Of a stretch of 64,000 nt of DNA, positions 1,291-50,521 are shown one piece after another. The stretch lies in contig JALONV010000002.1 in assembly GCA_025454755.1 (NCBI GenBank), forward strand, positions 10,052-74,051. The letters are read 5' to 3'. Within the stretch, counting starts at the first letter, position 1; each line of letters starts with the position of its first letter. Source of the stretch: Bacteroidales bacterium. Lineage in GTDB: Bacteria > Bacteroidota > Bacteroidia > Bacteroidales > VadinHA17. The notes under the pieces were generated by a model. That model was given only the letters and a program-made list of their open reading frames with translations, made no database searches and was not told where the DNA came from. Made by a program: the position numbers and the translations under genes.

Positions 1291-1377
1291 GCCCCCCTGC
1301 CTAAAGGGGGAGTGTAACTTTTCGTAAAAATAATATTTTATATGGGGTTTTAGCCCCCCTTCAGGGGGGATGGGGGG
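1291..1377. repeat. GC-rich double-hairpin intergenic element, copy 1
   Basis: The layout is CCCCCCTGCCTAAAGGGGG (1292-1310), an AT-rich spacer with GGGGTTT, then CCCCCC TTCA GGGGGG (1354-1369), AT, and GGGGGG (1372-1377). It directly abuts the polA stop (TTA 1378-1380). Confidence 0.85.
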
Positions 1378-4221
1378 TTATTTAGCTTCAAACCAATTCC
1401 GCCCCGTCCCCCAGTCAACCTTAAGCGGGATATCGAGTTTCGCGGCATTCGACATTTCATCAATTACCATAATCTTTAGCTTTTCAAGTTCTGAATCGGG
1501 CACCTCAAAAATGAGTTCGTCATGAACCTGCAGAATCATTTTCGATCTATACTTACCTTCTTTCAGCCTGTTGTCGATCCTTATCATGGCGATCTTAATA
1601 ATATCGGCAGCGGAGCCCTGTATGGGGGCATTTATGGCATTTCGTTCTGCATTGCCTCTTACCACCTGATTGCGGGAATGTATGTCGCGCAGATATCTTC
1701 TCCGTCCGAACATTGTGGTTACATATCCTTTATCTCTGGCCTTTTTTATGCTCTCATCCATGTAGGTTTTAACTCCCGGATAGGACGTAAAATATCCGTC
1801 AATGAGCTCCCTGGCTTCTTTTCGACCAATGGTAAGCCGCTCCGATAATCCAAACGAAGAAATGCCGTATATTATCCCGAAATTTGCAGTCTTTGCCCTG
1901 CTTCTCATTTCCCGCGTTACATCCTTTATATCAACACCAAAAATTTTGGAAGCAGTAGCCGCATGAATGTCATTTCCGGAAAGGAAATCTGATATCATGC
2001 TTTTATCCCGGCTGAGATGTGCCATCAGTCTCAGTTCTATCTGGGAATAATCCGCTGAAAAGAAAATATGGCCTTTTTCAGGTACAAACGCTTTTCTTAT
2101 CTCCCGGCCCCTTTCATCTCTTACCGGAATATTCTGAAGGTTGGGATTATTGGAGCTCAGTCTGCCTGTGGCAGCTACTGCCTGATTAAATGAAGTGTGA
2201 ATTCGGCCGGTCTTTCTGTCAATGAGTTGAGGCAATGCTTCAACATACGTCGTTAATAGCTTCTTTAATCCCCTGTATTCTAACACTTTATCAATAATTG
2301 GATGCTTATGTGCAAGGCGTTGAAGTATCTCTTCATTTGTAACAAACTGTCTGGTGCTTGTCATTCTTGCTTTGTCGTCAAGCTTCAGTTTTAAGAATAA
2401 TATATCTCCGAGCTGTTTGGGAGAAGAGATATTAAACTCTGTACCCGCAAGATTGAATATCTCTTTTTCAAGGAAAATAATATCATCCCGCAAGCTTGCA
2501 GTGATGAATTTGAGTTCCGCGGTATTCAGAATTACACCATTGCGTTCCATGAGTGCCAGAACGGGAATAAGAGGCATTTCAATATTGGACGATAACTCTG
2601 CAAGCCCTTCTGATTTTATTCTTGGTTCAAAAACATTCTTAAGCTGAAGTGTTACATCGGCATCCTCAACCGCATATTCCTTCAGCTTATCATTATCAAC
2701 TGAACGCATGTTTTTTTGCGTTTCGCCTTTCTCTCCGATCAACGATTCGATATGCACAGGAGTGTAGGAAAGATAGGTTTCCGATAGCAGGTTCATATTA
2801 TGGCGCATATCCGGCTCAAGAAGGTAATGGGCGATCATCGTGTCAAACAATGGTCCCCTGATCTCGATGCCATAATTTGCCAGCACCTGGATGTCAAATT
2901 TAAGATTCTGTCCGATTTTAATTATCGCCGGGTTTTCAAGAACCGGTCTGATTATGCTGAGAAGCCTGTGTGTCTCTTCCCTTGATTCCGGGAAGCGTAC
3001 AAGGTATCCTTTACTTTTTTCCCATGAAAATGCAATTGCTACAATTTCCGACTCAAGCGGATTGATGCTGGTGGTCTCCGTATCGAAACATATCTCCTTT
3101 TGCCCGGATGCGATTTCTGTCAATTTTCTTAATGACTGATCATCAGCGATAAGAATATATTCATGTTCCACATTCTCAATTGTCGATTTTGTAGTGTTGA
3201 CGATTGTCTCTTCTGTCTCTTCAGGGCCAAAAAAGAGAGAGCCCTGTACAGAGCCGGAGGAGGCATTCTGTTCTTGTTTTTCAGTTGCTGCAGGTCCTGC
3301 CACGGGCTTCTCGTGCTTTTCTATTTCAGAGAGTATCCTGGCAGCTACGGTTCTGAATTCAAGCTCCTCAAACAGGGTTTTCAGCTTCAGAGGATCAGGA
3401 ATTTCTGTTTCAAGTTCTTTTTCATTAAGATCAACCGGCACCCGAGTATCTATGGTTGCCAGTCTTTTTGACAATTCGATTTTTTCCCTGTTTCCTTCTA
3501 TGATTTCTTTCAGCTTCCCTTTTAGTTTGTCAGTATGTTTGAACAGCTCTTCCACTGAACCATATTCTGATATCAGTTTCATGGCTGTCTTTGGTCCCAC
3601 TCCCGGAGCTCCGGGAATATTATCGGAAGTGTCGCCCATGAGTGCAAGGATATCAATTACCTGTTTCGGATCCTTTACCTGGAATTCCCTTTTTATATCT
3701 TCAACACCCCATTGAACTGATTCATTCCCGCTTCTTGAGGGCTTGAACATCCGGACATTGTCAGTAACCAGCTGTGCAAAATCCTTATCAGGAGTCATCA
3801 TATATGTCGTGAATCCTTTTTCAGAGGCCTTTCTTGCCAGAGTTCCTATTACATCATCGGCTTCATAGCCCGGATAATCTATAACCGGAATTTTATAAGC
3901 CTCAATCAGTTTCTTGATATAAGGCACGGCTTTTTTTATGTCTTCAGGCGTCTCATCCCTGTTCGCCTTGTACTCAGGGTACATTTCATGCCTGAAGGTT
4001 GGCGTGGGAGTATCAAACACTACTGCAATATGTGTGGGTTTCTGTTTTTGCAGAACCTCTTCCAGTGTAAGAAGAAATCCAAATACAGCAGAAGTATTGA
4101 GCCCTTTGGATGTAATCCTGGGATTCTTAATGAATGCATAATACGATCTGAATATCAGGGCATATGCATCAAGTAAGAATAGTTTTTTCGGGATGTTCTC
4201 AATCATGTTTCTTTTCTTCAA
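1378..4221 (-). CDS. polA: DNA polymerase I
   Basis: 947 aa. It has a 5'-nuclease N-terminus ('LLDAYALIFRSYYA'), a 3'-5' exonuclease region ('CFDTETTS') and a family A polymerase domain ('RRRAKTANFGIIYG', 'QVHDELIFE'). Confidence 0.97.
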   Translation of the reverse strand: MKKRNMIENIPKKLFLLDAYALIFRSYYAFIKNPRITSKGLNTSAVFGFLLTLEEVLQKQKPTHIAVVFDTPTPTFRHEMYPEYKANRDETPEDIKKAVPYIKKLIEAYKIPVIDYPGYEADDVIGTLARKASEKGFTTYMMTPDKDFAQLVTDNVRMFKPSRSGNESVQWGVEDIKREFQVKDPKQVIDILALMGDTSDNIPGAPGVGPKTAMKLISEYGSVEELFKHTDKLKGKLKEIIEGNREKIELSKRLATIDTRVPVDLNEKELETEIPDPLKLKTLFEELEFRTVAARILSEIEKHEKPVAGPAATEKQEQNASSGSVQGSLFFGPEETEETIVNTTKSTIENVEHEYILIADDQSLRKLTEIASGQKEICFDTETTSINPLESEIVAIAFSWEKSKGYLVRFPESREETHRLLSIIRPVLENPAIIKIGQNLKFDIQVLANYGIEIRGPLFDTMIAHYLLEPDMRHNMNLLSETYLSYTPVHIESLIGEKGETQKNMRSVDNDKLKEYAVEDADVTLQLKNVFEPRIKSEGLAELSSNIEMPLIPVLALMERNGVILNTAELKFITASLRDDIIFLEKEIFNLAGTEFNISSPKQLGDILFLKLKLDDKARMTSTRQFVTNEEILQRLAHKHPIIDKVLEYRGLKKLLTTYVEALPQLIDRKTGRIHTSFNQAVAATGRLSSNNPNLQNIPVRDERGREIRKAFVPEKGHIFFSADYSQIELRLMAHLSRDKSMISDFLSGNDIHAATASKIFGVDIKDVTREMRSRAKTANFGIIYGISSFGLSERLTIGRKEARELIDGYFTSYPGVKTYMDESIKKARDKGYVTTMFGRRRYLRDIHSRNQVVRGNAERNAINAPIQGSAADIIKIAMIRIDNRLKEGKYRSKMILQVHDELIFEVPDSELEKLKIMVIDEMSNAAKLDIPLKVDWGTGRNWFEAK

Positions 4222-4250: not shown

Positions 4251-4357
4251 GACCCCCTGGCCGCTGCGCGGCCCTCCCGCCTAAGCAGGACTAAAACCCA
4301 GTACTAAATAAGATTTCCTTATTGGGTTTCAACCCCCCTTCAGGGGGGGCTGGGGGG
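4251..4357. repeat. GC-rich double-hairpin intergenic element, copy 2
   Basis: The left part is degenerate, with nested hairpins GGCCGC TGC GCGGCC (4259-4273) and TCCCGC CTAA GCAGGA (4275-4290). The right part is CCCCCC TTCA GGGGGGG (4333-4349), CT, and GGGGGG (4352-4357). It abuts the queD stop (TTA 4358-4360). Confidence 0.85.
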
Positions 4358-4810
4358 TTATCTATTATCTTCTGCAAACCATTCGGCGTATGATTTTGCG
4401 GTTTCATATAGTTTCAGGCTGTGAAGTGAGATCCCTTCAGGCATTTCATTAATGAGCCTGCCTGCAAAATCAGCAACAAGATTTTCGCAGGTGGGCTGGT
4501 AATCAACGATTACTGTATTCCCGAAGGTTTTTTCCAGCATTCCCTTTTTTTCTTCGTCAAAATTCCTGCTGATCACAACTGAATGGTCGAACAGATTTAC
4601 AATCTTCTTAAGGACAATATTCTTTAGTTCGGTAAAATCGATTACCATTCCGTTTTTCGGATTGTCTGCATCATTTACAGGAACACCCGATAAAGTCACG
4701 AAAAGCCGGTATGAGTGGCCATGAACATTTCTGCACGGACCATCATAATTTCCAAGTACATGTGCCATCTCAAAAGTGAACTCTCTTGTGACCCTGATTA
4801 TTGAATTCAT
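4358..4810 (-). CDS. queD: 6-carboxy-5,6,7,8-tetrahydropterin synthase (6-pyruvoyl-tetrahydropterin synthase family)
   Basis: 150 aa. 'REFTFEMAHVL..CRNVHGHSYRLFVTL' carries the Cys/His-His zinc and catalytic motif of the QueD/PTPS family. Confidence 0.88.
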   Translation of the reverse strand: MNSIIRVTREFTFEMAHVLGNYDGPCRNVHGHSYRLFVTLSGVPVNDADNPKNGMVIDFTELKNIVLKKIVNLFDHSVVISRNFDEEKKGMLEKTFGNTVIVDYQPTCENLVADFAGRLINEMPEGISLHSLKLYETAKSYAEWFAEDNR

Positions 4811-4972
4811 AATTATTGTTTTGAAGACTTCCCAAAATTAGTTATTCTGCCGGATTTAACAGTTCGAATAAAGCGCCACCGCTGTTCGAAAGCCTGTTTA
4901 TTAACAATAATTAAACAAAAATTTGCTTAATTTGCGTAAATTGCGTCCTTTGGATTAATTAAAATCCACATC

Positions 4973-6619
4973 ATGGAAGAGATCATACAAAAACTAACTT
5001 TCCCTGCATTATTCAACGAAACTATCCGCAGATGCGGCAAATCGCGAGCTTACGCTTTTGTGGGAGAAGAACCGATAACTTACGAAGAAGCAGGAAGAAA
5101 GATCCAGGCTTTATCAGCATTTCTTGAAAAAGCAGACATACACCCGGGTGACAGAGTTGCCCTGCTTAGCACCAATATGCCAAACTGGCCATTAGCCTAT
5201 TTTTCAGTAACGTTCATGGGGGCCGTAATTGTTCCGATACTTCCGGATTTTTCTGTTACGGAAGTTGCAAATGTACTGGAGCACTCCGGAGCCAGGGCTA
5301 TTTTTATATCATCAGGGCTTGTATCGAGAATTGAAGGATTCAGGTCGGAAAATCTAAAGACAGTAATCTCTCTGGAAGATTTTTCCATTGTCAGTTCCGA
5401 AAAGAATTTATCGGGATTTGATCCCGGTGCAACACCATCACAAAACTATGATGTAAAGGAAGATGACCTTGCAGCTATAATCTATACTTCGGGGACAACG
5501 GGTCGTTCAAAAGGAGTAATGCTGACACATAAAAACATAACATTCAATGCATTCAAGGGATATAAAATTCAGCCTGTTGATGAAAATGACCGTTTTTTGT
5601 CGGTGCTTCCACTGTCGCATACTTATGAGAATACCCTGGGATTGATTCTGCCGCTAATCGGAGGATCATGTGTCTATTATTTAAGAAAGCCTCCCACTCC
5701 GCCTGTGCTGATGCCGGCGCTTGAACTGGTTAAACCCACTGTCATGCTGACTGTTCCCCTGATTATGGAAAAAGTATATTTTAACAAGATTCTTCCGGCT
5801 TTCAGGGAAAAACTTATACTTAAGCTTCTCTATAAAATCCCGATCTTCAGGAAATTGCTCCACCTTGCTGCCGGTAAAAAGCTGTATAAAACATTTGGTG
5901 GAAATCTTAAATTTTTCGGTATCGGAGGAGCCAAGCTTAACAGAAGCGCTGAACAATTCCTTAGCGAAGCTAAATTCCCATATGCCATCGGCTATGGTCT
6001 GACTGAAACTTCACCTCTTCTTGCGGGTGCCAATCCCAGCAAAACGGTATTTCTATCAACCGGACCGGCAATTGAAGATATTGAATTGAAAATCAATAAT
6101 CCGGATAAGAAAACCGGAGAAGGAGAAATCTGGGCAAGAGGAGCAACTGTTATGAAAGGTTATTACAAGGAACCTGAAATGACAGCCGAAGTGCTGACTC
6201 CTGATGGCTGGTTCAAAACCGGAGATCTTGGTGTGCTTGACAAAAACAACAACCTTTTCATCAGGGGAAGACTTAAAAATATGATTGTTGGTGCAAGCGG
6301 TGAGAATATTTATCCCGAAGAGATCGAGTCTGTTATCAACAATTTCCGTTTTGTGGTTGAATCGCTTGTTGTTCAGCAGAAAGGAAAACTTGTAGCTTAT
6401 GTTCACCTTAACATGGAAGAGCTTGAAAAGAAATATCAGAACCTGAAACAGGACATGTCGGATAAATACGAAGAGAAAAAGGAAGAGTTGCTGGCTGAGT
6501 TAAAGGAATACGTCAATTCACAGGTCAATAAGTTCAGCCAGATACAAAAGGTTGAGCTTCAGCCTGTCCCGTTTCAGAAAACAGCAACACTTAAAATAAA
6601 AAGGTTTCTGTACACATAA
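4973..6619 (+). CDS. AMP-dependent synthetase/ligase, long-chain-fatty-acid--CoA ligase-like
   Basis: 548 aa. AMP-binding signature 'IIYTSGTTGRSKGVMLTHKN', followed by 'GYGLTETS' and 'WFKTGDLG'. Confidence 0.85.
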   Translation: MEEIIQKLTFPALFNETIRRCGKSRAYAFVGEEPITYEEAGRKIQALSAFLEKADIHPGDRVALLSTNMPNWPLAYFSVTFMGAVIVPILPDFSVTEVANVLEHSGARAIFISSGLVSRIEGFRSENLKTVISLEDFSIVSSEKNLSGFDPGATPSQNYDVKEDDLAAIIYTSGTTGRSKGVMLTHKNITFNAFKGYKIQPVDENDRFLSVLPLSHTYENTLGLILPLIGGSCVYYLRKPPTPPVLMPALELVKPTVMLTVPLIMEKVYFNKILPAFREKLILKLLYKIPIFRKLLHLAAGKKLYKTFGGNLKFFGIGGAKLNRSAEQFLSEAKFPYAIGYGLTETSPLLAGANPSKTVFLSTGPAIEDIELKINNPDKKTGEGEIWARGATVMKGYYKEPEMTAEVLTPDGWFKTGDLGVLDKNNNLFIRGRLKNMIVGASGENIYPEEIESVINNFRFVVESLVVQQKGKLVAYVHLNMEELEKKYQNLKQDMSDKYEEKKEELLAELKEYVNSQVNKFSQIQKVELQPVPFQKTATLKIKRFLYT

Positions 6620-6642
6620 ATATTTATACAGATCAGGATTAA

Positions 6643-6679
6643 ATGTTAAGAGACGCTCAAATTGGGCGTCTCTTAACAT
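6643..6679. terminator. bidirectional hairpin between convergent ligase and SOD genes
   Basis: ATGTTAAGAGACGC (6643-6656) and GCGTCTCTTAACAT (6666-6679) form a perfect 14-bp stem with a 9-nt loop. Confidence 0.7.
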
Positions 6680-6704
6680 TAATATTCGTTGTGGCGCAAA
6701 AAAA

Positions 6705-8427: not shown

Positions 8428-8457
8428 AACCAATATTACCGTAATGATTAAACTTGT

Positions 8458-8491
8458 AGAGACGCCCCGTTTGGGCGTCTCTGCAGTTTTT
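8458..8491 (+). terminator. rho-independent-type terminator after lipoprotein gene
   Basis: AGAGACGCCC (8458-8467) pairs with GGGCGTCTCT (8473-8482) across a 5-nt loop. It is followed by GCAGTTTTT. Confidence 0.7.
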
Positions 8492-8508
8492 ATGACGTTT
8501 GTCTGCAT

Positions 8509-12261: not shown

Positions 12262-12323
12262 AAATCCCTTAAAGGGGACTTATTGTTACTAATTTTCTTA
12301 GGCCCCCTTCAGGGGGTTGGGGG
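12262..12323. repeat. GC-rich double-hairpin intergenic element, copy 3 (short)
   Basis: TCCCTTAAAGGGGA is at about 12265-12278, followed by a spacer. Then come CCCCC TTCA GGGGG (12303-12316), TT, and GGGGG (12319-12323). The right arm lies inside the 3' end of ORF 12298..12615. Confidence 0.75.
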
Positions 12324-12615
12324 CACAACACTCCCCAACACTTATCAGAACGTTCTTCAGGTTTGAATGTTTAAGAAAATACCACGTATTCTTCCCTTCC
12401 CGCTTTGACGAAAGGACTCCTCTGTCTTTCAATATCACAAGATGATGAGATGCCGTGGCCTGTCCGATTCCCAGTTTCCTGTGGATTTCCGTTACAGTTC
12501 TCTTCTTTCCGTCCTCAAGGTACTGAACGATTGATATTCTTACCGGATGTGCTATTGCCTTAAGCAGATTTGCAGCTTTGTCAAGGACTTCAGGATTAAG
12601 TTCCTTTAATTCCAT
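12298..12615 (-). CDS. ArsR/SmtB-family transcriptional regulator
   Basis: 105 aa with 'LKAIAHPVRISIVQYL' and 'EIHRKLGIGQATASHHLVILKDRGVL'. The last 8 codons ('APNPLKGA') are encoded by repeat copy 3. Confidence 0.85.
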   Translation of the reverse strand: MELKELNPEVLDKAANLLKAIAHPVRISIVQYLEDGKKRTVTEIHRKLGIGQATASHHLVILKDRGVLSSKREGKNTWYFLKHSNLKNVLISVGECCAPNPLKGA

Positions 12616-23118: not shown

Positions 23119-23147
23119 CCTTTTTTAAATTGGTGGCAGGGTATTAA

Positions 23148-23272
23148 GATTGCTTCGTCGCTTCGCTCCTCGCAATGACGGTTGATTATTATGACTCGTT
23201 AAACTGTAACAAGGCTAAGTTTAGTAACTGTCATTGCGAGGAGACACGCGCCAGTGTGGCGCCGAAGCAATC
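23148..23272. repeat. inverted-repeat (MITE/REP-like) element, GATTGCTTCG...CTCGCAATGAC type, copy A
   Basis: The left arm is GATTGCTTCGTCGCTTCGCTCCTCGCAATGAC (23148-23179). The right arm is GTCATTGCGAGGAG[ACACGCGCCAGTGTGGCGC]CGAAGCAATC (23230-23272). The central loop is about 50 nt and AT-rich. Confidence 0.85.
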
Positions 23273-27356: not shown

Positions 27357-27499
27357 GATTGCTTCGTCGCGGAGTTTACCCCGCGAAGCGGGGCTCCTCG
27401 CAATGAGGATAATTCAAATATCGATTGTAAATCTTTATAGATCGTTTATTATCAGATCTGCGGTCATTGCGAGTCCCGCCTAAGCGGGACGAAGCAATC
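27357..27499. repeat. inverted-repeat (MITE/REP-like) element, GATTGCTTCG...CTCGCAATGA type, copy B
   Basis: The left arm is GATTGCTTCGTC[GCGGAGTTTACCCCGCGAAGCGGGG]CTCCTCGCAATGA (27357-27406). The right arm is GTCATTGCGAG[TCCCGCCTAAGCGGGA]CGAAGCAATC (27463-27499). The loop is about 56 nt and AT-rich. Confidence 0.85.
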
Positions 27500-27517
27500 T
27501 TCCCGGACTACCACAAA

Positions 27518-29134
27518 TTATATAAACAGCGGCACATGTTTAAACCGTATCCCGTCAAATAACCCGCGGTCGCTTAATTTGAGCTCAGGGATTACCAGGA
27601 GTGCCATAAAGGAAAGAGTCATGAAGGGCGCAGACATTGTACATCCAAGATCTTTAACAATTGCTGAGAGTTTTTCATATTCTGCTGCCACCACCTGACA
27701 TGTTTTTGTTGACATTATTCCTGCAATATCAAGCTGCAGGGAATTTATCCTGCCGGATGAGGAAACTGCCAGTCCACCTTTCATTTTAACTACTTCATTT
27801 ACAACGGTTACAATATCTTTATCATTTGTTCCGATTGAGATAATATTATGGCTGTCATGGGCTACTGAACTGGCAAATGCTCCTGTTTTAAGTCCAAAGC
27901 CTTTAATGAATCCTGCAGAAGGCGGCAAATCTCTGTATCTGTCCTTGACAACTATTTTGAGTACATCGGATGACAGATCTGAATTAACCATGTTTCCCTT
28001 CCGCGGTTCATGAATTGTTTCTTTTGTAAAGAGCTCCCCGTCAAATGCCGTAATCACACGCATTTTATTGCCTGCTCTTCTAACCTGTATTTCCTCTTCC
28101 TTTATCTGAGAACATCTGAATTTGTTAATTGGACTCCCAGGTAAGTATTCAAAAAGCACTTTACCCCTGTCGAAAACTTTTTGTCCGCTGATCCAGGTTT
28201 CAACTACATTCATTCTTTTCAGATCGTCTACAATTATAAAATCTGCCGGATCTCCAGGTCTCAATAAACCGGCATCCAGTCCGTAATGCAGTACAGGGTT
28301 TATTGTCACACTTCTCAGCACATTAAAAAGATCATATCCTTCTTCTATGAGAGCCGCAACAAGCTTTTCAAGATGTCTTTTCTGCAGCATTTCAGGGTGA
28401 ATATCATCACTGCTCAACATTATCATTTCCGGGTAATCATTATATAAGTTCTTAAGTGCATTTAGATTTCTTCCTGCACTCCCTTCCCTTATAATAACCT
28501 TCATTCCCAGGCTTATTTTTTCAATTGCTTCTTCATATGAACTGCATTCATGATCAGTTGATATCCCTGCCGATATATATTTCCTCAGGTTTTCTCCGGT
28601 CAGTCCCGGGGCATGGCCGTCGATGGGCTTATTAAGTTCTTTTGCTATCTTTATCTTTCTTAATATTTCATCATTCTGATTTATAACGCCCGGAAAATTC
28701 ATCATTTCCGCAAGGAACAGTATTTCATTTTTTTTCAGAAGCTCTGATATTTCATCCGCGCCTATAGATGCTCCGTTTGATTCCATGTTTGTTGCCGGGA
28801 CACAAGAAGGAGCGCCGAAATAAAACCTGAATGGCGTTTTTCTCCCATCATCAATCATGAATTTTACTCCATCACTTCCTACAACATTTGCTATTTCATG
28901 AGGATCAGACACTACACCTATTGTTCCATGTGGAACACTTGCCATTGCAAATGATCCGGGCGTTAGCATTGAGCTTTCAATATGCACATGAGCATCTATA
29001 AACCCGGGAAGAATGTATATTTCTGATTTCCCCGGGATTTCATTTATTGTAATAATCCTGCCGTCTATAATGCATATTTCAGCATTCAATATTTTTCTAT
29101 TATGAATATCGACCAGCCTTGCTGTAAGTTTCAT
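27518..29134 (-). CDS. ade: adenine deaminase
   Basis: 538 aa with 'LPGFIDAHVHIESSMLTP' and 'VSDPHEIANV'. Confidence 0.9.
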   Translation of the reverse strand: MKLTARLVDIHNRKILNAEICIIDGRIITINEIPGKSEIYILPGFIDAHVHIESSMLTPGSFAMASVPHGTIGVVSDPHEIANVVGSDGVKFMIDDGRKTPFRFYFGAPSCVPATNMESNGASIGADEISELLKKNEILFLAEMMNFPGVINQNDEILRKIKIAKELNKPIDGHAPGLTGENLRKYISAGISTDHECSSYEEAIEKISLGMKVIIREGSAGRNLNALKNLYNDYPEMIMLSSDDIHPEMLQKRHLEKLVAALIEEGYDLFNVLRSVTINPVLHYGLDAGLLRPGDPADFIIVDDLKRMNVVETWISGQKVFDRGKVLFEYLPGSPINKFRCSQIKEEEIQVRRAGNKMRVITAFDGELFTKETIHEPRKGNMVNSDLSSDVLKIVVKDRYRDLPPSAGFIKGFGLKTGAFASSVAHDSHNIISIGTNDKDIVTVVNEVVKMKGGLAVSSSGRINSLQLDIAGIMSTKTCQVVAAEYEKLSAIVKDLGCTMSAPFMTLSFMALLVIPELKLSDRGLFDGIRFKHVPLFI

Positions 29135-40881: not shown

Positions 40882-42435
40882 CTATTTTATAAGCTTTGTA
40901 TCGCTTTCAGGAAGGTTTATTTTAACGCCATTTATGCTGGTTTCAACGTCATCCCTGTAGGTAATGGTTAGATATGGCATGCCCTCTTCATCAAATTTCT
41001 TCCATGTTTTCTGCCGTATCCCGTTTTTATAGAATTGCTCCTCTTTTATTTTTCCGTTTTCGTAATAATAAAGATGCTGACCATCGGGATTGCCCTGAAC
41101 ATAATTACCTTTATATCTTAGTGTCCCGTCATTAAAATAGGATTTCCACAGACCATCTTTCAGCCCGATTATATACTTTCCTTCTTCTGTGTTATCGCCT
41201 GATTTGAATTTCCATTCCCCGTTTCTTTCTCCGTCAGAATAAGTTCCCTGCCCTATTACATCACCGGTTTCAGAATATTCCGCATATGCTCCATCGCGTT
41301 GACCCTGGAAATATTCTTCCTCCCTTAGTATTGCTCCGTTTCCGTAATACCATTTCCAAAGTCCGTCCGGCCGTCCATTGTTAAAGAATCCTGTTTGTTC
41401 TGTTTTCCCTTCTGTAGTATAGAATTTCCATAATCCTGTGCGCCTGTTGTCGCTATAGGTACCTTCGGCTTTTAATTTTCCATCGGGATAAAAATCTTTC
41501 CATTTTCCATTGTGATTGCCGGCTTCATCCACAATTCCTTCAGAAACTTTTAATCCGTTGTCGTTGTAAATAAAAGCATTCGTAACCTTTCCTTCTTTTC
41601 CATATTCACGATGAACGCCAACAGGTACACTATTTCTGTAAGGACCACTGTATATCAGTTTATTATCGGCATCGTACCTGTTTACTATTTCAATATCCGG
41701 CTGGTCCTCTACATTGGATTTTACAATCGATCCGTTTTCATAAAGCATGGTAAGTACCAGTACGCCGCGTTGATCATATTCCTTGTAATAGCCATGAAGA
41801 TTATCGTCCTTATATGTTTTTTCCGTTTTCTTGCCCCCGTTCGGGTAAAATTCGATCCATTCTCCCTGTTTTAATCCATTGCTGTCAGTCCGGTTGATTT
41901 TTTCCCTGCTTACCAGAAAGTCATTATTATATTCCAGAAGAGTTATAATATTTCCGTTTTTATCATATTCTTTTGATAATCCCTCCCGTTTACCTGTATT
42001 GAACGATACGGTCTGCTGTATTTTGCCTTCAGGAAAATAGAAATATCCGGTGCCTTCTTTTCTGCCTCCGGCGTAGAGCTCCTTTGACCAGATATAAACT
42101 CCTGCCGAAGGATCTTTTTTATATTTAAAATAATATCCGTTCTTCTTGTCAAAAAGATAGCTTATCTTATCAGTTGTATCTCCGGCCTGATCATAAAATA
42201 ACCAGATGCTGTCTAATTTGAAATTAGTGTATTTTCCCTCTGATTTTATAACTCCGGTTACATAATATGTTTTCCAATAGCCGTCAGGTTTGCCATTTTT
42301 CATCATTCCCTCGCTAGATATACTGCCATTTGGATATTTAAATACCTGATATCCATCCTTAAGATTTTCAGTTGTTTGCCCTGATATTTTAAGTATTAAA
42401 AACAGAAATAATACTATTGTATACAATTTCTTCAT
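40882..42435 (-). CDS. secreted MORN-variant (YwqK-like) repeat protein
   Basis: 517 aa with a signal peptide and about 20 repeats of the G-x-W-x-x-Y-Y-x-N-G type ('[12 protein letters not shown]', '[13 protein letters not shown]'). Confidence 0.75.
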
Positions 42436-42438
42436 GTC

Positions 42439-43392
42439 TTACAGACCAAGTTGTTCAGATATTTCAAGCATGCGCTGTATTGGTTTATGTGCTGCTTCAA
42501 TTATTTTCTTATTAACGTTTATTTCGGGTTTTTCTGTCTTAATACATCTATAAATTTTTTCCATTGTAATAAGTTTCATGAAATTGCATTCACTGCATCC
42601 GCATGTAGAATCTTTCGGAGGAGCCGGTATAAATATTTTTCCGTGACTTTCTTTTTTCATCTGATGGATTATACCAGGCTCGGTTGCTACTATAAAGCAT
42701 TTTGCCCCATTCTTTTTTGTAAAGCTTAGAAGAGCAGCTGTAGATCCAATAAAATCTGCAATCATTCTTATTGGCAATTCACATTCAGGATGCACTATTA
42801 CTTTTGCATTCTTATTTTCTTCTTTCAGCTTAAGTATTGCTTCAAGAGAGAATTCCTCATGTACATGACATGTTCCATTCCAGATAATTATATCTCTTCC
42901 TGTTTGATTAAGAACATAATTTCCAAGATTCCTGTCCGGTGCAAAAATGATCTTTTCTTTTTCCGGAAGTGATTTTACTATCTGTACTGCATTTGAAGAA
43001 GTGCATGAAATATCTGACAATGCCTTAATTTCAGCAGTGGTATTTACATATGTTATTACTGTTCTGCCTGGATTTTCTTTGAGGAATTTTTTAAAATCCT
43101 TTGCTTTGCATGAGTCAGCAAGTGAGCATCCCGCATTTATATCAGGAAGAAGTACTTTCTTTTCAGGAGCAAGTATTTTTGCTGTTTCTGCCATGAATTT
43201 AACTCCTGCAAACAATATTATATCAGCATCATTTGCTGCTGCTTTTTGAGATAATGCAAGACTGTCTCCCACAAAATCAGCAATATCCTGGATATCTCCT
43301 GTCTGATAATAATGTGCCAGGATGATAGCATTTTTATCTTTCTTCATCCTGTTTATTTCATTAATAATATCTATTGATTTTTCTTTGCTCAT
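42439..43392 (-). CDS. nadA: quinolinate synthase
   Basis: 317 aa with 'ILAHYYQTGDIQDIADFVGDSL' and 'ILFAGVKFMAETAKIL'. The conserved Cys residues are present. Confidence 0.92.
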   Translation of the reverse strand: MSKEKSIDIINEINRMKKDKNAIILAHYYQTGDIQDIADFVGDSLALSQKAAANDADIILFAGVKFMAETAKILAPEKKVLLPDINAGCSLADSCKAKDFKKFLKENPGRTVITYVNTTAEIKALSDISCTSSNAVQIVKSLPEKEKIIFAPDRNLGNYVLNQTGRDIIIWNGTCHVHEEFSLEAILKLKEENKNAKVIVHPECELPIRMIADFIGSTAALLSFTKKNGAKCFIVATEPGIIHQMKKESHGKIFIPAPPKDSTCGCSECNFMKLITMEKIYRCIKTEKPEINVNKKIIEAAHKPIQRMLEISEQLGL

Positions 43393-43870
43393 CTATTAAA
43401 TTGAGGGTTTTCAACAAAGTAAATAATTTATAATTTTTAAAATTTAATTATATATGATTATGATGTTATGCTGTTAATTGTGTTGAAATTAAAATACTAA
43501 TATTATTGCTTTTAAATAAATTATCATTTAACAAACACGTTTTCAACAACATCAAACAAATTTATTAATTGCAAATCAGTTAATTGACATCAGAGTTAAC
43601 AATTGTTATGTAAATGATTAAATCATTGAAAGCAGAACAAATTTATGGTTTTAAATGTTCATTTAAAGTTCATAGCATAACTTTATTCTTTTGAAACGTT
43701 ATAACAAAAATAGTGATTTATCATTTTTATTTTGATTTTGTTAAGAAAACCGGAGTTATTAAGTTTTTTTGAATCTCTTTTAATTTGTTTATAAACATTA
43801 AAACCGTTGATAAAAGAGATATAAGTATATTTTTTTCCTTAAATTAACAGGCTGATTAAAATTACACCTG

Positions 43871-44317
43871 ATGAAGAAGCCAAAAATAGCAATAGTTTCA
43901 GACCATGCAGGTTTTTACCTTAAAGAAAAACTGCTGGATTTTCTGATTAAAGAAAAATATGATGTAAAGGATTTTGGATGTCCTTCGGCAGAGGTTGTAG
44001 ACTATCCCGATTATGGCCACCCTATGGCAAATGCTGTCGCAAAAGGAGAGTTTCAGATTGGAATTTCAATATGCGGTACCGGGAACGGCATAAATATGAC
44101 CGTGAACAAACATCCTGGGATCAGAAGCGCGTTGTGCTGGAACGAAGAAACAGGAAAACTTGCAAGGGCGCATAATGATGCAAATATATGTGCTCTTCCC
44201 GGAAGATTTATTAATGAGGCAGAAGCCTGCCTGATAGTAAGAACGTTCCTTACCACTTCTTTTGAAGGAGGAAGACACAAAAGAAGGATAGATAAAATAC
44301 CGCTAAAAATATATTGA
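43871..44317 (+). CDS. rpiB: ribose 5-phosphate isomerase B
   Basis: 148 aa with 'ICGTGNGINMTVNKHPGIRSALC' and 'ARAHNDANICALPGRF'. Confidence 0.92.
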   Translation: MKKPKIAIVSDHAGFYLKEKLLDFLIKEKYDVKDFGCPSAEVVDYPDYGHPMANAVAKGEFQIGISICGTGNGINMTVNKHPGIRSALCWNEETGKLARAHNDANICALPGRFINEAEACLIVRTFLTTSFEGGRHKRRIDKIPLKIY

Positions 44318-48807: not shown

Positions 48808-49650
48808 ATGAAATACGTTGGCGCACATGTATCAGCAGAAGGCGGTGTTCAGAATGCCCCTGTCAATGCCAATGCCATCGGAGCTAAGGCATTCGCACTT
48901 TTCACAAAAAATCAGCGGCAGTGGTTTTCAAGTCCGCTTACATCAAAATCGATCTCTGAATTCAGGGCAAACTGCGAAAAATTCGATTATAAACCGTTCC
49001 AGATACTTCCGCACGACAGCTACCTGATAAACCTCGGACACCCTGAAAAAGAGCCGCTGGAAAAATCAAGAACCTCATTTATGGATGAAATGAAAAGATG
49101 CGAGCTTCTCGGCCTTGACAGGTTGAATTTTCATCCGGGCAGTCATCTGAATAACATTACAATAGATGAGTGTCTTAAAAGAATTGCAGAATCGATTAAT
49201 ATTTCATTCGACAAAACAAAAGGCGTAATTGCGGTCATTGAAAATACTGCAGGCCAGGGAACAAACCTGGGACATACATTTGAACAAATAGCGTTCATAA
49301 TTTACCATGTTGAAGATAAATCGCGTGTTGGTGTCTGCATAGATACCTGTCATGCATACACTTCAGGATATGAGGTGAAAACAAAAAACGGGTTCACTGA
49401 AACATTTAAAAGATTTTCTGAAATAATCGGCATGCAATATTTAAAGGGAATGCATCTGAATGATTCAAAGAAAGACTATGGTACCAGGGTTGACCGTCAT
49501 GAAAACATTGGAGGAGGATTTCTTGGGGAAGAAATTTTTTCGCTGATAATGAACGATAGCCGGTTCGACAATATACCGTTGATTCTTGAAACCCCCGAGG
49601 AATCATTATGGGAAGCAGAAATAAAAAAATTGTATTCATTTATTAAATAA
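48808..49650 (+). CDS. nfo: deoxyribonuclease IV (endonuclease IV)
   Basis: 280 aa with 'GAHVSAEGG', 'NFHPGSH', 'CIDTCHAY' and 'HLNDSK'. Confidence 0.93.
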
Positions 49651-49730
49651 CCCCCCACCCCCCTAAAGGGGGGTTAAAAACCCATAAATTTAATTTTTGG
49701 TTTCACCCCCCCTTCAGAGGGGCAGGGGGG
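49651..49730. repeat. GC-rich double-hairpin intergenic element, copy 4 (most symmetric)
   Basis: The left end is CCCCCC A CCCCCC TAAA GGGGGG (49651-49673), followed by an AT-rich core. The right end is CCCCCCC TTCA GAGGGG CA GGGGGG (49706-49730). The two ends are approximate reverse complements. Confidence 0.85.
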
Positions 49731-50521
49731 TTGGTTAGTTTATCTGAAATAGCTTTCTGAATTTCTAAATCCCTCAGCTTCTCCTTGGTTTTTTTATAAC
49801 CCAGTTCAAAAAGCTCATCTGCTTTTTCCACGCCAAGGATACTATATTTTGTGAGCTCCGGAGGAGCAATCAGAATATCGAATTTATCTCCCTTTTCTTC
49901 GACCTCCTTTGCCTGGTCGAGCATAAATATTCTCACCGCAATGGTAATAAATCCTGATGTTGTAGCTTCATACCCTACTGGATTAACGAAAGACCCGATC
50001 AGCATTTTGCATTTGTTTTCGATAGGCTTAACAGGAAAGTTATCAAGAACTCCGCCATCAACATAATATATCTTATTAATTATCACTGGTTTAAACAATA
50101 AAGGAATGCTTGAGGATGCAATTAAAGCTGTAACCAGTTCCCCTTTTGAAAAATAAACAGGTCTGGCATTATTCAGATCGGTTGCACAAACAATCAAAGG
50201 TATTTTCAATTCTTCAAACCTTTTTGCTTTCAAATTGGCTTTCAGCAATTTCGCAATGCCTGAAATATCGAGCAATCCGTCACGGGGAATAACGGGGCGC
50301 ATTAAATCAAGCTTACTTTGGGGCTTCATTATTTTAAGGATCTCCCTGGGTGAATGACCATCACAGTATAACGCTCCAGCCAGAGAACCAGCACTGGTGC
50401 CGGCAATAATATCAGGGAAAATATCTGATTCATTCAATGCCTGCAATACTCCAAGATGGGCAAAACCCCTTGCTCCGCCACCGCTCAGCACCAAACCGGT
50501 TTTATATTTTTCTTCAGGCAT
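49703..50521 (-). CDS. patatin-like phospholipase
   Basis: 272 aa with 'LVLSGGGARGFAHLGVL', the GxSxG motif 'GTSAGS' and the catalytic Asp region 'YVDGGVLDNFP'. The last residues '..NPPAPLKGG' are encoded by repeat copy 4. Confidence 0.88.
   Translation of the reverse strand: MPEEKYKTGLVLSGGGARGFAHLGVLQALNESDIFPDIIAGTSAGSLAGALYCDGHSPREILKIMKPQSKLDLMRPVIPRDGLLDISGIAKLLKANLKAKRFEELKIPLIVCATDLNNARPVYFSKGELVTALIASSSIPLLFKPVIINKIYYVDGGVLDNFPVKPIENKCKMLIGSFVNPVGYEATTSGFITIAVRIFMLDQAKEVEEKGDKFDILIAPPELTKYSILGVEKADELFELGYKKTKEKLRDLEIQKAISDKLTNPPAPLKGG

Follow-up and report, generated by a model that had tools for sequence, protein, structure and literature searches.

A probable REP/REPIN-like repeat family at gene ends of uncultured Bacteroidales

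We analysed a 64-kb stretch of Bacteroidales DNA, hereafter the window, in which a short palindromic element resides between two convergent genes, nfo, coding for endonuclease IV, and a gene for a patatin-like phospholipase. The nfo ORF (48808–49650) ends with a TAA codon, and the element begins on the very next base, as an earlier note on this DNA had described. The two ends given in that note, CCCCCC-A-CCCCCC-TAAA-GGGGGG on the left and CCCCCCC-TTCA-GAGGGG-CA-GGGGGG on the right, are present at positions 49651–49673 and 49706–49730, respectively, and flank the AT-rich core TTAAAAACCCATAAATTTAATTTTTGGTTTCA of 32 nt (49674–49705). The palindrome turned out to be slightly longer than first noted, with AA/TT on the outside and TTAAAAACC/GGTTTCA on the inside. 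The region 49649–49732 (~85 nt) is composed of two arms of ~36 nt in inverted orientation with an AT-rich centre between them, each arm reading A-C6-n(1-2)-C6-TRAA-G6-YTAAAACC on the sense strand of the gene that it abuts. The two ends of the element are, in other words, two inverted copies of one ~36-nt unit (Table 1). No tRNA or tmRNA was found near the element, and the Pfam assignments of 30 ORFs in the window comprised only housekeeping families and no transposase.

Folded as RNA, the 101-nt region forms one long hairpin at -47.2 kcal/mol (z = -3.1), and none of 200 shuffled sequences folded as well. The same region folds at -23.5 kcal/mol as DNA, and the left arm by itself at -16.1 kcal/mol. 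The arm motif recurs in the window far beyond chance: searching a 16-mer hairpin with at most two mismatches gave seven matches at four sites, compared with 0.00 expected from 100 shuffles. Runs of six or more C or G cluster at the arm sites, with a few isolated single runs elsewhere in the window, which has a GC content of 40%. A profile built from arms in other genomes and searched against the window with nhmmer revealed five significant arms at four loci, among which the nfo/patatin copy is the only doublet with both arms intact.

Table 1. Positions of the element between nfo and the patatin-like gene and of the other family arms in the window.
Feature	Position	Strand	Evidence or remark
Degenerate partner arm of the polA/thiS-like pair, C6-TG-CC-TAAA-G5	1292–1310	+	weak, E=0.28
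Arm flush with the polA TAA stop (1378–1380)	1343–1380	-	E=2.6e-12
Degenerate 'type-2' partner arm with extra GC hairpin (GCCGCTGCGCGGC), upstream of the polA start	4253–4299	+	
Arm flush with the TAA (4358–4360) of the 6-pyruvoyl-tetrahydropterin synthase (PTPS/QueD-like) gene	4322–4360	-	E=6.6e-9
C5/G5 arm read through by an ArsR-family ORF	12298–12325	-	E=0.014; significant part 12303–12321
nfo TAA stop (endonuclease IV; Pfam AP_endonuc_2)	49648–49650	+	abuts first C of the element
Left arm, sense for nfo: C6-A-C6-TAAA-G6-TTAAAAACCCA	49651–49684	+	family arm profile, nhmmer E=4.2e-9
AT-rich centre (TAAATTTAATTT)	49685–49696	.	unconserved among family copies
Right arm, sense for patatin: AA-C6-TG-CCCCTC-TGAA-G7-TGAAACCAAA	49697–49732	-	nhmmer E=3.9e-7; direct-repeat family D1/D2
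Element-encoded C-terminal extension, AAC CCC CCT GCC CCT CTG AAG GGG GGG TGA = NPPAPLKGG and stop	49703–49732	-	
Native part of the patatin-like phospholipase gene (Pfam Patatin)	49733–50521	-	ortholog lengths

The patatin-like ORF (49703–50521, reverse strand) runs through the whole right arm and stops at a TGA in the core, the reverse complement of 49703–49705, which gives a translated product ending in ...DKLTNPPAPLKGG. That this tail derives from the element had been proposed from the letters, together with an alignment to orthologs as the way to examine it. The 120 best homologs are proteins from Bacteroidales MAGs with 66–92% identity and a typical length of 262–265 residues, which end in ...(I/V)(S/A)xKL(G/S/L). 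The NPPAPLKGG tail is foreign to all 120 orthologs. Element-free orthologs that nevertheless end in PPAPLKGG, which would have indicated a conserved protein motif, were sought in the same set and none was found; the motif explanation is ruled out, as the tail is absent from these 120 proteins and the ArsR tail (see below) from the usual ArsR orthologs of 99 residues. Because the orthologs lack the tail and the same tail recurs on unrelated ORFs (see below), we conclude that NPPAPLKGG is derived from the element.

The comparison of filled and empty sites led to the same conclusion. The closest ortholog (P0001, 92% identity) is found in two loci, L001 and L002, with the same gene order as in the window, namely Nramp, patatin, nfo, and GATase_7. 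Both represent the empty site: the TGA of patatin is followed by a single nucleotide and then by the reverse-complement stop of nfo, whereas ~85 nt separate the patatin and nfo genes in the window. The C-terminus of the nfo product is unaltered by the insertion (...LYSFIK in the window vs. ...LYSFVK in the relative), while the patatin stop is lost and the ORF continues to the TGA after the hairpin of the arm. The suggestion in the earlier note that the insertion had replaced or extended the 3' end of a gene therefore applies to patatin only, which is extended by nine residues. Its statement that no spacer was left between the genes goes too far, since just 1 nt separates the two genes where the site is uninterrupted. 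In a more distant relative (82% identity; L003, 6793–6900), whose locus has no nfo gene, a (CAGGTTC)n heptamer array comes after the patatin stop and a truncated arm (CCCCCCACCCCCCCTAATAAACCC) after the array. Other odd tails occur in the patatin orthologs P0047, P0013, and P0056 (...SPLPIKNPPGFQE, ...KTAPL, and ...EITPL, respectively), and may be read-through into other repeats.

At the remaining loci in the window, the polA/thiS-like pair (1292–1310 and 1343–1380), whose partner arm has a shortened second C-run, folds at -34.1 kcal/mol, and the whole QueD/polA element at -60 kcal/mol (z = -4.3). A second translated tail was found on the ArsR-family protein. The usual ArsR orthologs of 99 residues end in ...CCKE, and this native end is replaced in the window by ...CCAPNPLKGA, a close variant of the PLKGG tail. 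The window protein and three relatives with 82–92% identity all end in ...CC(A/T)(P/S)NPLKG(A/D), a sequence for which the arm is again read in the same frame.

We scanned one genome per GTDB species with the pattern CCCCCCTTYAGGGGGGN{1,3}GGGGGGTT, and more than 105 stretches were among the matches listed. Nearly all of those listed are from MAGs labelled Bacteroidales, Bacteroidia or 'Rikenellaceae', originating from fen, peat, lake sediment, soil, and rumen; several listed matches lie within one MAG, and two fall in Chitinophagales. Carriage of the family by phages was considered and rejected, with only one family-like contig (L198) among the 20 matches in 2.9 million viral contigs. The consensus of 124 arms from other genomes is tAACCCCCCAnCCCCCCTaAAGGGGGGCTAAaaccC, and the full unit on the sense strand of the abutted gene is (T)A-A-C6-n(1-2)-C6-TRAA-G6-YTAAAACC. 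Arms of ~36 nt fold individually at -12 to -18 kcal/mol. Solo arms are common, and each presumed terminal inverted repeat is a self-folding unit that also occurs alone.

The architecture of the pairs is nearly invariant, with 37 in '+-' orientation (the A-C6-nn-C6 ends outermost), none in '-+' orientation, and one '++' tandem. Full pairs are 67–116 nt long (median 93), and the spacer between the two hairpins of a pair is 21–55 nt (median 42). The inner part common to pairs is YTAAAACC...GGTTTTAR, the rest of the centre being unconserved even within one genome. The element thus consists of two REP-like arms in inverted orientation on either side of an AT-rich centre that varies. A 'type-2' distal arm is present in 20 of 58 pairs and is composed of C5-TTCA-G5, an extra GC hairpin of 14–26 nt, and G5; the stem of the extra hairpin varies from copy to copy, and the arm at 4253–4299 is of this kind. 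Within a pair, the variable positions (loop R and spacer nn) of one arm differ from those of the other, and it follows from this and from the divergent centres that most copies are old or that the arms evolve independently. Neither did we find element-specific covariation in the inner AAACC/GGTTT helix, where 6.2 of 12 positions pair within elements vs. 5.9 between elements.

At three loci, L167 (past the polA stop), L134, and L144, both arms have ATTT in the loop rather than the mirror-image TRAA and TTYA. In other doublets, the loop and spacer bases of one arm generally do not mirror those of its partner, so the two arms are not kept identical. At L023, L101, and L110, CTAAACC(A/G)-like 8-mers form a long tandem array behind an arm that is flush with a TAA stop.

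The relation of the arms to gene ends was analysed on a restricted sample, since the pattern used for the large scan had a fixed AA in front of the first C-run (TT behind the last G-run) and consequently enriched for TAA-flush arms. Among the 51 arms not chosen by the pattern, a small sample, the stop codon of a long ORF, either TAA or TGA, is exactly flush with the arm in nine, and an ORF runs into the arm in ten. The nearest long-ORF stop lies 1–10 nt upstream in six cases and 11–50 nt upstream in ten, with none nearby or beyond these bins for the other 16. ORFs reading into an arm stop at +17, at the TGA or TAA of the loop, or at about +28, at the TAA past the hairpin. In the consensus with a 2-nt spacer, the flush, loop, and post-hairpin stops are in three different frames, so that an ORF deprived of its own stop comes to an end within the arm. 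In other genomes, at least 11 unrelated long ORFs receive ...PPxPLKGG from this arm, read in the same frame as in patatin, and six ORFs receive ...P(L/Q)PP from another frame. For solo arms, a gene end within 10 nt or a read-in ORF is found on the C-rich-sense side in 33 of 48 and on the other side in 2 of 48. The family occupies the short gap, a few bases wide, that separates a stop codon from the following gene, and the proximal arm has its C-rich sequence on the sense strand.

Part of this arrangement can be put down to gene spacing and pair geometry. Because neighbouring genes are often only 1–12 nt apart, the position after a stop codon is the only tolerated insertion point, and because its outer ends are fixed, a pair automatically offers a sense arm to either neighbour. 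These two factors explain the flush signal and the polarity in part; they do not account in full for the sharp peak at exactly 0 or for the polarity that solo arms show. One alternative to a REP/REPIN-like repeat (see below) is that the arm is primarily a host-selected RNA module of gene 3' ends, a functional cis-element of the mRNA combining stops in three frames with a stable hairpin at the stop, whose spread is secondary. Such a module would fix the 3' ends of mRNAs, stop exonucleases, adjust events coupled to termination or insulate adjacent genes. The strong polarity and the exact flush position at real TAA and TGA stops argue for it, as does the enrichment of T at -3 in the seeded arms only where a long ORF truly ends. 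Yet the fixed architecture of pairs by itself dictates the polarity of their arms, and gene gaps of 1–12 nt account for part of the flush signal without any function.

The comparison of related genomes bears on both readings. At three sites compared with relatives of 92–95% amino-acid identity from one metagenome (L001 and L111), all three differ from the window. The QueD/polA site in L111 is occupied by a different palindromic family of GAGTGCCTA-type repeats, and the polA/thiS site in the relative by tandem octamers of ACGGCNCA. Over ~80 QueD loci and 47 polA ends, most are empty, consisting of the stop, a few bases, and ATG, and the C6 element is present in a scattered minority, flush with TAA or TGA. 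The family is thus interspersed at many unrelated gene ends and present or absent between close relatives. In one MAG (CAWEYU), two pairs, L047 and L064, have centres that are 84% identical and flanks that are unrelated, from which it follows that the whole doublet was copied as a unit, at least there.

Retention was observed as well. At the leuA-leuC junction, six MAGs with 80–96% LeuA identity share TAACCCCCCTGCCCCCCTRAAGGGGGG, TG spacer included; their left arms are identical, and the centre has diverged beyond alignment. The arms are held constant either by selection or by the copying process, because the arm stayed identical as the centre diverged. The arm read through by ArsR is likewise retained in relatives down to 82% identity. 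Both cases are in line with a host-selected RNA module, and so is the occurrence of different hairpin-forming repeat families at the same post-stop sites in related genomes. However, the sites of many close relatives are empty and have no hairpin, and the module is therefore dispensable. The lack of covariation in the inner helix and of an Rfam family also speaks against it, whereas the asymmetry of G-U wobble pairs, which would distinguish selection at the RNA level from selection at the DNA level, is based on too few cases to decide (~11 unique single-mismatch arms). We consider an RNA module as the primary explanation possible but unlikely. A related proposal, in which the arm would be a polar 'gene-end cap' that is kept by purifying selection for an RNA-level role or delivered by a mechanism recognising the ends of coding regions and not a target sequence in the DNA, appears equally doubtful to us; its role would be in translation termination, in defining mRNA 3' ends or in insulating tightly packed genes.

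The other repeats at these post-stop sites deserve a description of their own. The second palindromic family at QueD-polA has tandem 8–9-mers of the GAGTGCCTA type on the left and the reverse complement on the right; it is found at L111 (989–1050), L126, L129, L144, L150, L165, L179, and ~20 other QueD loci. It often starts 0–3 nt past the QueD stop (TAA-GAAGTTTGGAGTGCC), and the ORF runs into the repeat at L169, L177, and L184. A third type of post-stop repeat is represented by the ACGGCNCA tandem octamers, with up to ~15 units beginning 0–2 nt past the polA stop in many relatives (L111, L123, L155, L176, L177, L178, and L189).

The earlier note had described the element as having MITE-like architecture. 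The terminal inverted repeats are real and typical of the family, as the 37 inverted pairs demonstrate, but the MITE label is not earned. A classical MITE would have arisen by deletion from an insertion sequence that shares its terminal inverted repeats, and a DDE transposase would mobilise it in trans. Terminal inverted repeats of ~35 nt, the small size without coding capacity, the presence/absence polymorphism, and the single pair of copies with similar centres in one genome would all fit such an origin. Nonetheless, no target-site duplications were detected in 48 pairs, for which matches of k = 2–5 at four boundary offsets were about as frequent as expected, and no insertion sequence with such ends was found in 1.36 Mb of flanking sequence. 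Solo arms, common and functionally oriented, are also difficult to reconcile with a MITE. The missing duplications and the heterogeneous centres make a DDE-type MITE very unlikely.

Neither was a dedicated enzyme detected around the arms. A tblastn search of 1.36 Mb of loci with sequences of E. coli RayT and IS200 TnpA gave no RAYT/IS200 similarity, a 31-residue match at L106 being spurious, and the HUH...Y motif had no match in six-frame translations of the same 1.36 Mb. The L106 locus also contains a 131-residue ORF (4492–4887, reverse strand) between a solo arm (4427–4450) and a pair (5036–5130), which resembles a DUF559/Vsr-type endonuclease by eye (...FRRQHPI...VDFYC...IEIDG...). As an enzyme of the family it was rejected, for it has no homolog in the other loci and its association with the arms is probably due to chance.

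A bidirectional intrinsic terminator that evolved in place between the convergent genes, neither mobile nor copied, is excluded by the distribution of copies, the 26-nt arm recurring at more than 100 unrelated sites in many genomes, and we give it almost no credence despite the GC-rich hairpin between nfo and patatin and the one terminator-like site (49670–49651, reverse strand) flagged by a consensus scan. A U-tract is not consistently present: five or more T in the 8 nt past the hairpin occur in one third of the pairs (16 of 48), the mean is 3.3 of 8 including two palindromic T's, and single arms continue into the A-rich YTAAAACC. Furthermore, pairs lie between the close tandem genes leuA-leuC, QueD-polA, and polA-thiS, whose operon status is inferred from their spacing only and where a strong terminator would cut off the downstream genes, and the closest relative has neither spacer nor hairpin at the nfo/patatin site. 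Rfam 15 gave no match in the window at the gathering score and only generic long-hairpin matches below the threshold at 49600–49790. An integron attC site was rejected on its ends (AAATAAC... and ...GTTGGTT/GTTATTT, unlike RYYYAAC...GTTRRRY) and on its surroundings of housekeeping genes with no integrase nearby, and a G-quadruplex because the G-runs cannot provide four G3 tracts with loops.

We therefore favour the explanation that the element is probably one copy of a multicopy, non-coding, non-autonomous palindromic repeat family of Bacteroidales of the REP/REPIN type. The doublet landed in the 1-nt gap between the convergent nfo and patatin genes, leaving the nfo stop flush with the element, displacing the patatin stop, and adding NPPAPLKGG to the protein. 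An enzyme encoded elsewhere, for which a Y1 HUH transposase of the RAYT type is the best candidate, may act in trans and copy the element as a folded single strand. The transcribed hairpin could additionally serve as a barrier to 3' exonucleases or as an insulator of mRNA 3' ends, as REPs do in E. coli. This role is suggested by the analogy with E. coli REPs and by the conservation of the arms, and could in turn explain why the arms stay conserved at orthologous sites.

The likeness to REPs, BIMEs, and REPINs extends over several features. They are short self-folding palindromes with many copies interspersed at gene 3' ends, REPINs are inverted doublets with a less conserved spacer, and REP/IS200-type elements leave no target-site duplication. 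Long vertical retention alongside variation between relatives, with local gain and loss, is also shared with REPs and REPINs. Furthermore, the termini of REPs contribute stop codons in many cases, and REPs are also encountered within ORFs (Di Nocera et al., 2013, PMC3733652), which is equally true of the arms of the Bacteroidales family. The differences are equally clear. The GT[AG]G or CGTC tetranucleotide found in classical REPs at the foot of the stem is absent from the consensus of 124 arms; C-runs outnumber G-runs two to one in the arm, which also has a conserved YTAAAACC tail; and the variant arm bears an extra GC hairpin. No cognate RAYT was detected in the 1.36 Mb around the arms or among 30 ORFs of the window. 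The strong differences between centres, even within one genome, and the mismatch between the arms of a pair also count against the REP/REPIN explanation. One RAYT subclass, 2.6, is specific to Bacteroidetes, and atypical structures that lack the GTAG tag border its genes (Quentin et al., 2018, PMC6006769); the C6 motif is absent from the REP table published for this subclass. The family sequence was not found in the published REP tables and papers searched, nor did anything matching the arm appear in the literature searched on REPs and MITEs of Bacteroidetes.

Among bacterial MITEs that change gene ends, the Correia elements of Neisseria, Rickettsia palindromic elements, Coxiella MITEs, and the RU/ERIC elements of enterobacteria are comparable in having ~70–170 nt, terminal inverted repeats, and long RNA hairpins, and in inserting near or in ORFs, to which they give amino acids or stops. 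They differ in their target-site duplications (TA for Correia) or in-frame insertion and in their fairly homogeneous full-length copies, in contrast to the Bacteroidales family with no duplication, variable centres, and common solo arms. The position of the arms has a further parallel in E. coli, where, as Liang, Rudd and Deutscher reportedly found in 2015, REPs within 15 nt of a stop codon stall terminating ribosomes and trigger trans-translation. The Bacteroidales arms likewise place a stable hairpin within the ribosome footprint of the stop, as judged here from sequence. Pro-Pro before a stop codon is a poor termination context, and the read-through tails of one frame end in Pro-Pro, which invites comparison with the stalling at stop-proximal REPs in E. 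coli, the hosts here being uncultured Bacteroidales.

The phenomenon as such is familiar from Proteobacteria, but the Bacteroidales family, its coupling to stop codons, and the recurrent translated tails appear to be undescribed. Only the family is new: small bacterial repeats of its kind are well known, and it does not represent a new kind of system. The empty sites provide evidence that, in uncultured Bacteroidales, a small repeat alters how housekeeping genes end. Of the 58 genes in the window, two have tails encoded by the repeat, and ...PLKGG also terminates unrelated proteins in other genomes; such tails inflate the protein-family diversity in metagenome catalogues and can mislead the annotation of C-termini. 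The signature A-C6-nn-C6-TRAA-G6 offers an easily searched marker for the poorly characterised REP/RAYT-type systems of Bacteroidota. The family also allows the effect of a stop-flush hairpin on expression to be tested in a phylum without Shine-Dalgarno-led initiation.

The window contains further repeats of possible interest. Two hairpins at 6641–6680 and 8452–8493 share the stem AGAGACGC(C/T)C...GGGCGTCTCT and each lie between convergent genes; the latter begins with GTAG and is followed by a T-run. Both look like GTAG-type REPs or bidirectional terminators. A post-stop element of ~55 nt (...GGTGGCAGGGTATTAAGATTGCTTCGTC-hairpin-CTCGCAATGAC) occurs as an inverted repeat at 23121–23175 and 27480–27526 and has no Rfam match at the gathering score; one of its copies has the mini-hairpin CCCGCTTAGGCGGG, the same kind of insert as in the 'type-2' arms. 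The lowest GC content of the window (0.31) is found at 42001–44000, centred on an AT-rich gap of 480 nt from nadA (42439–43392, reverse strand) to rpiB (43871–44317).
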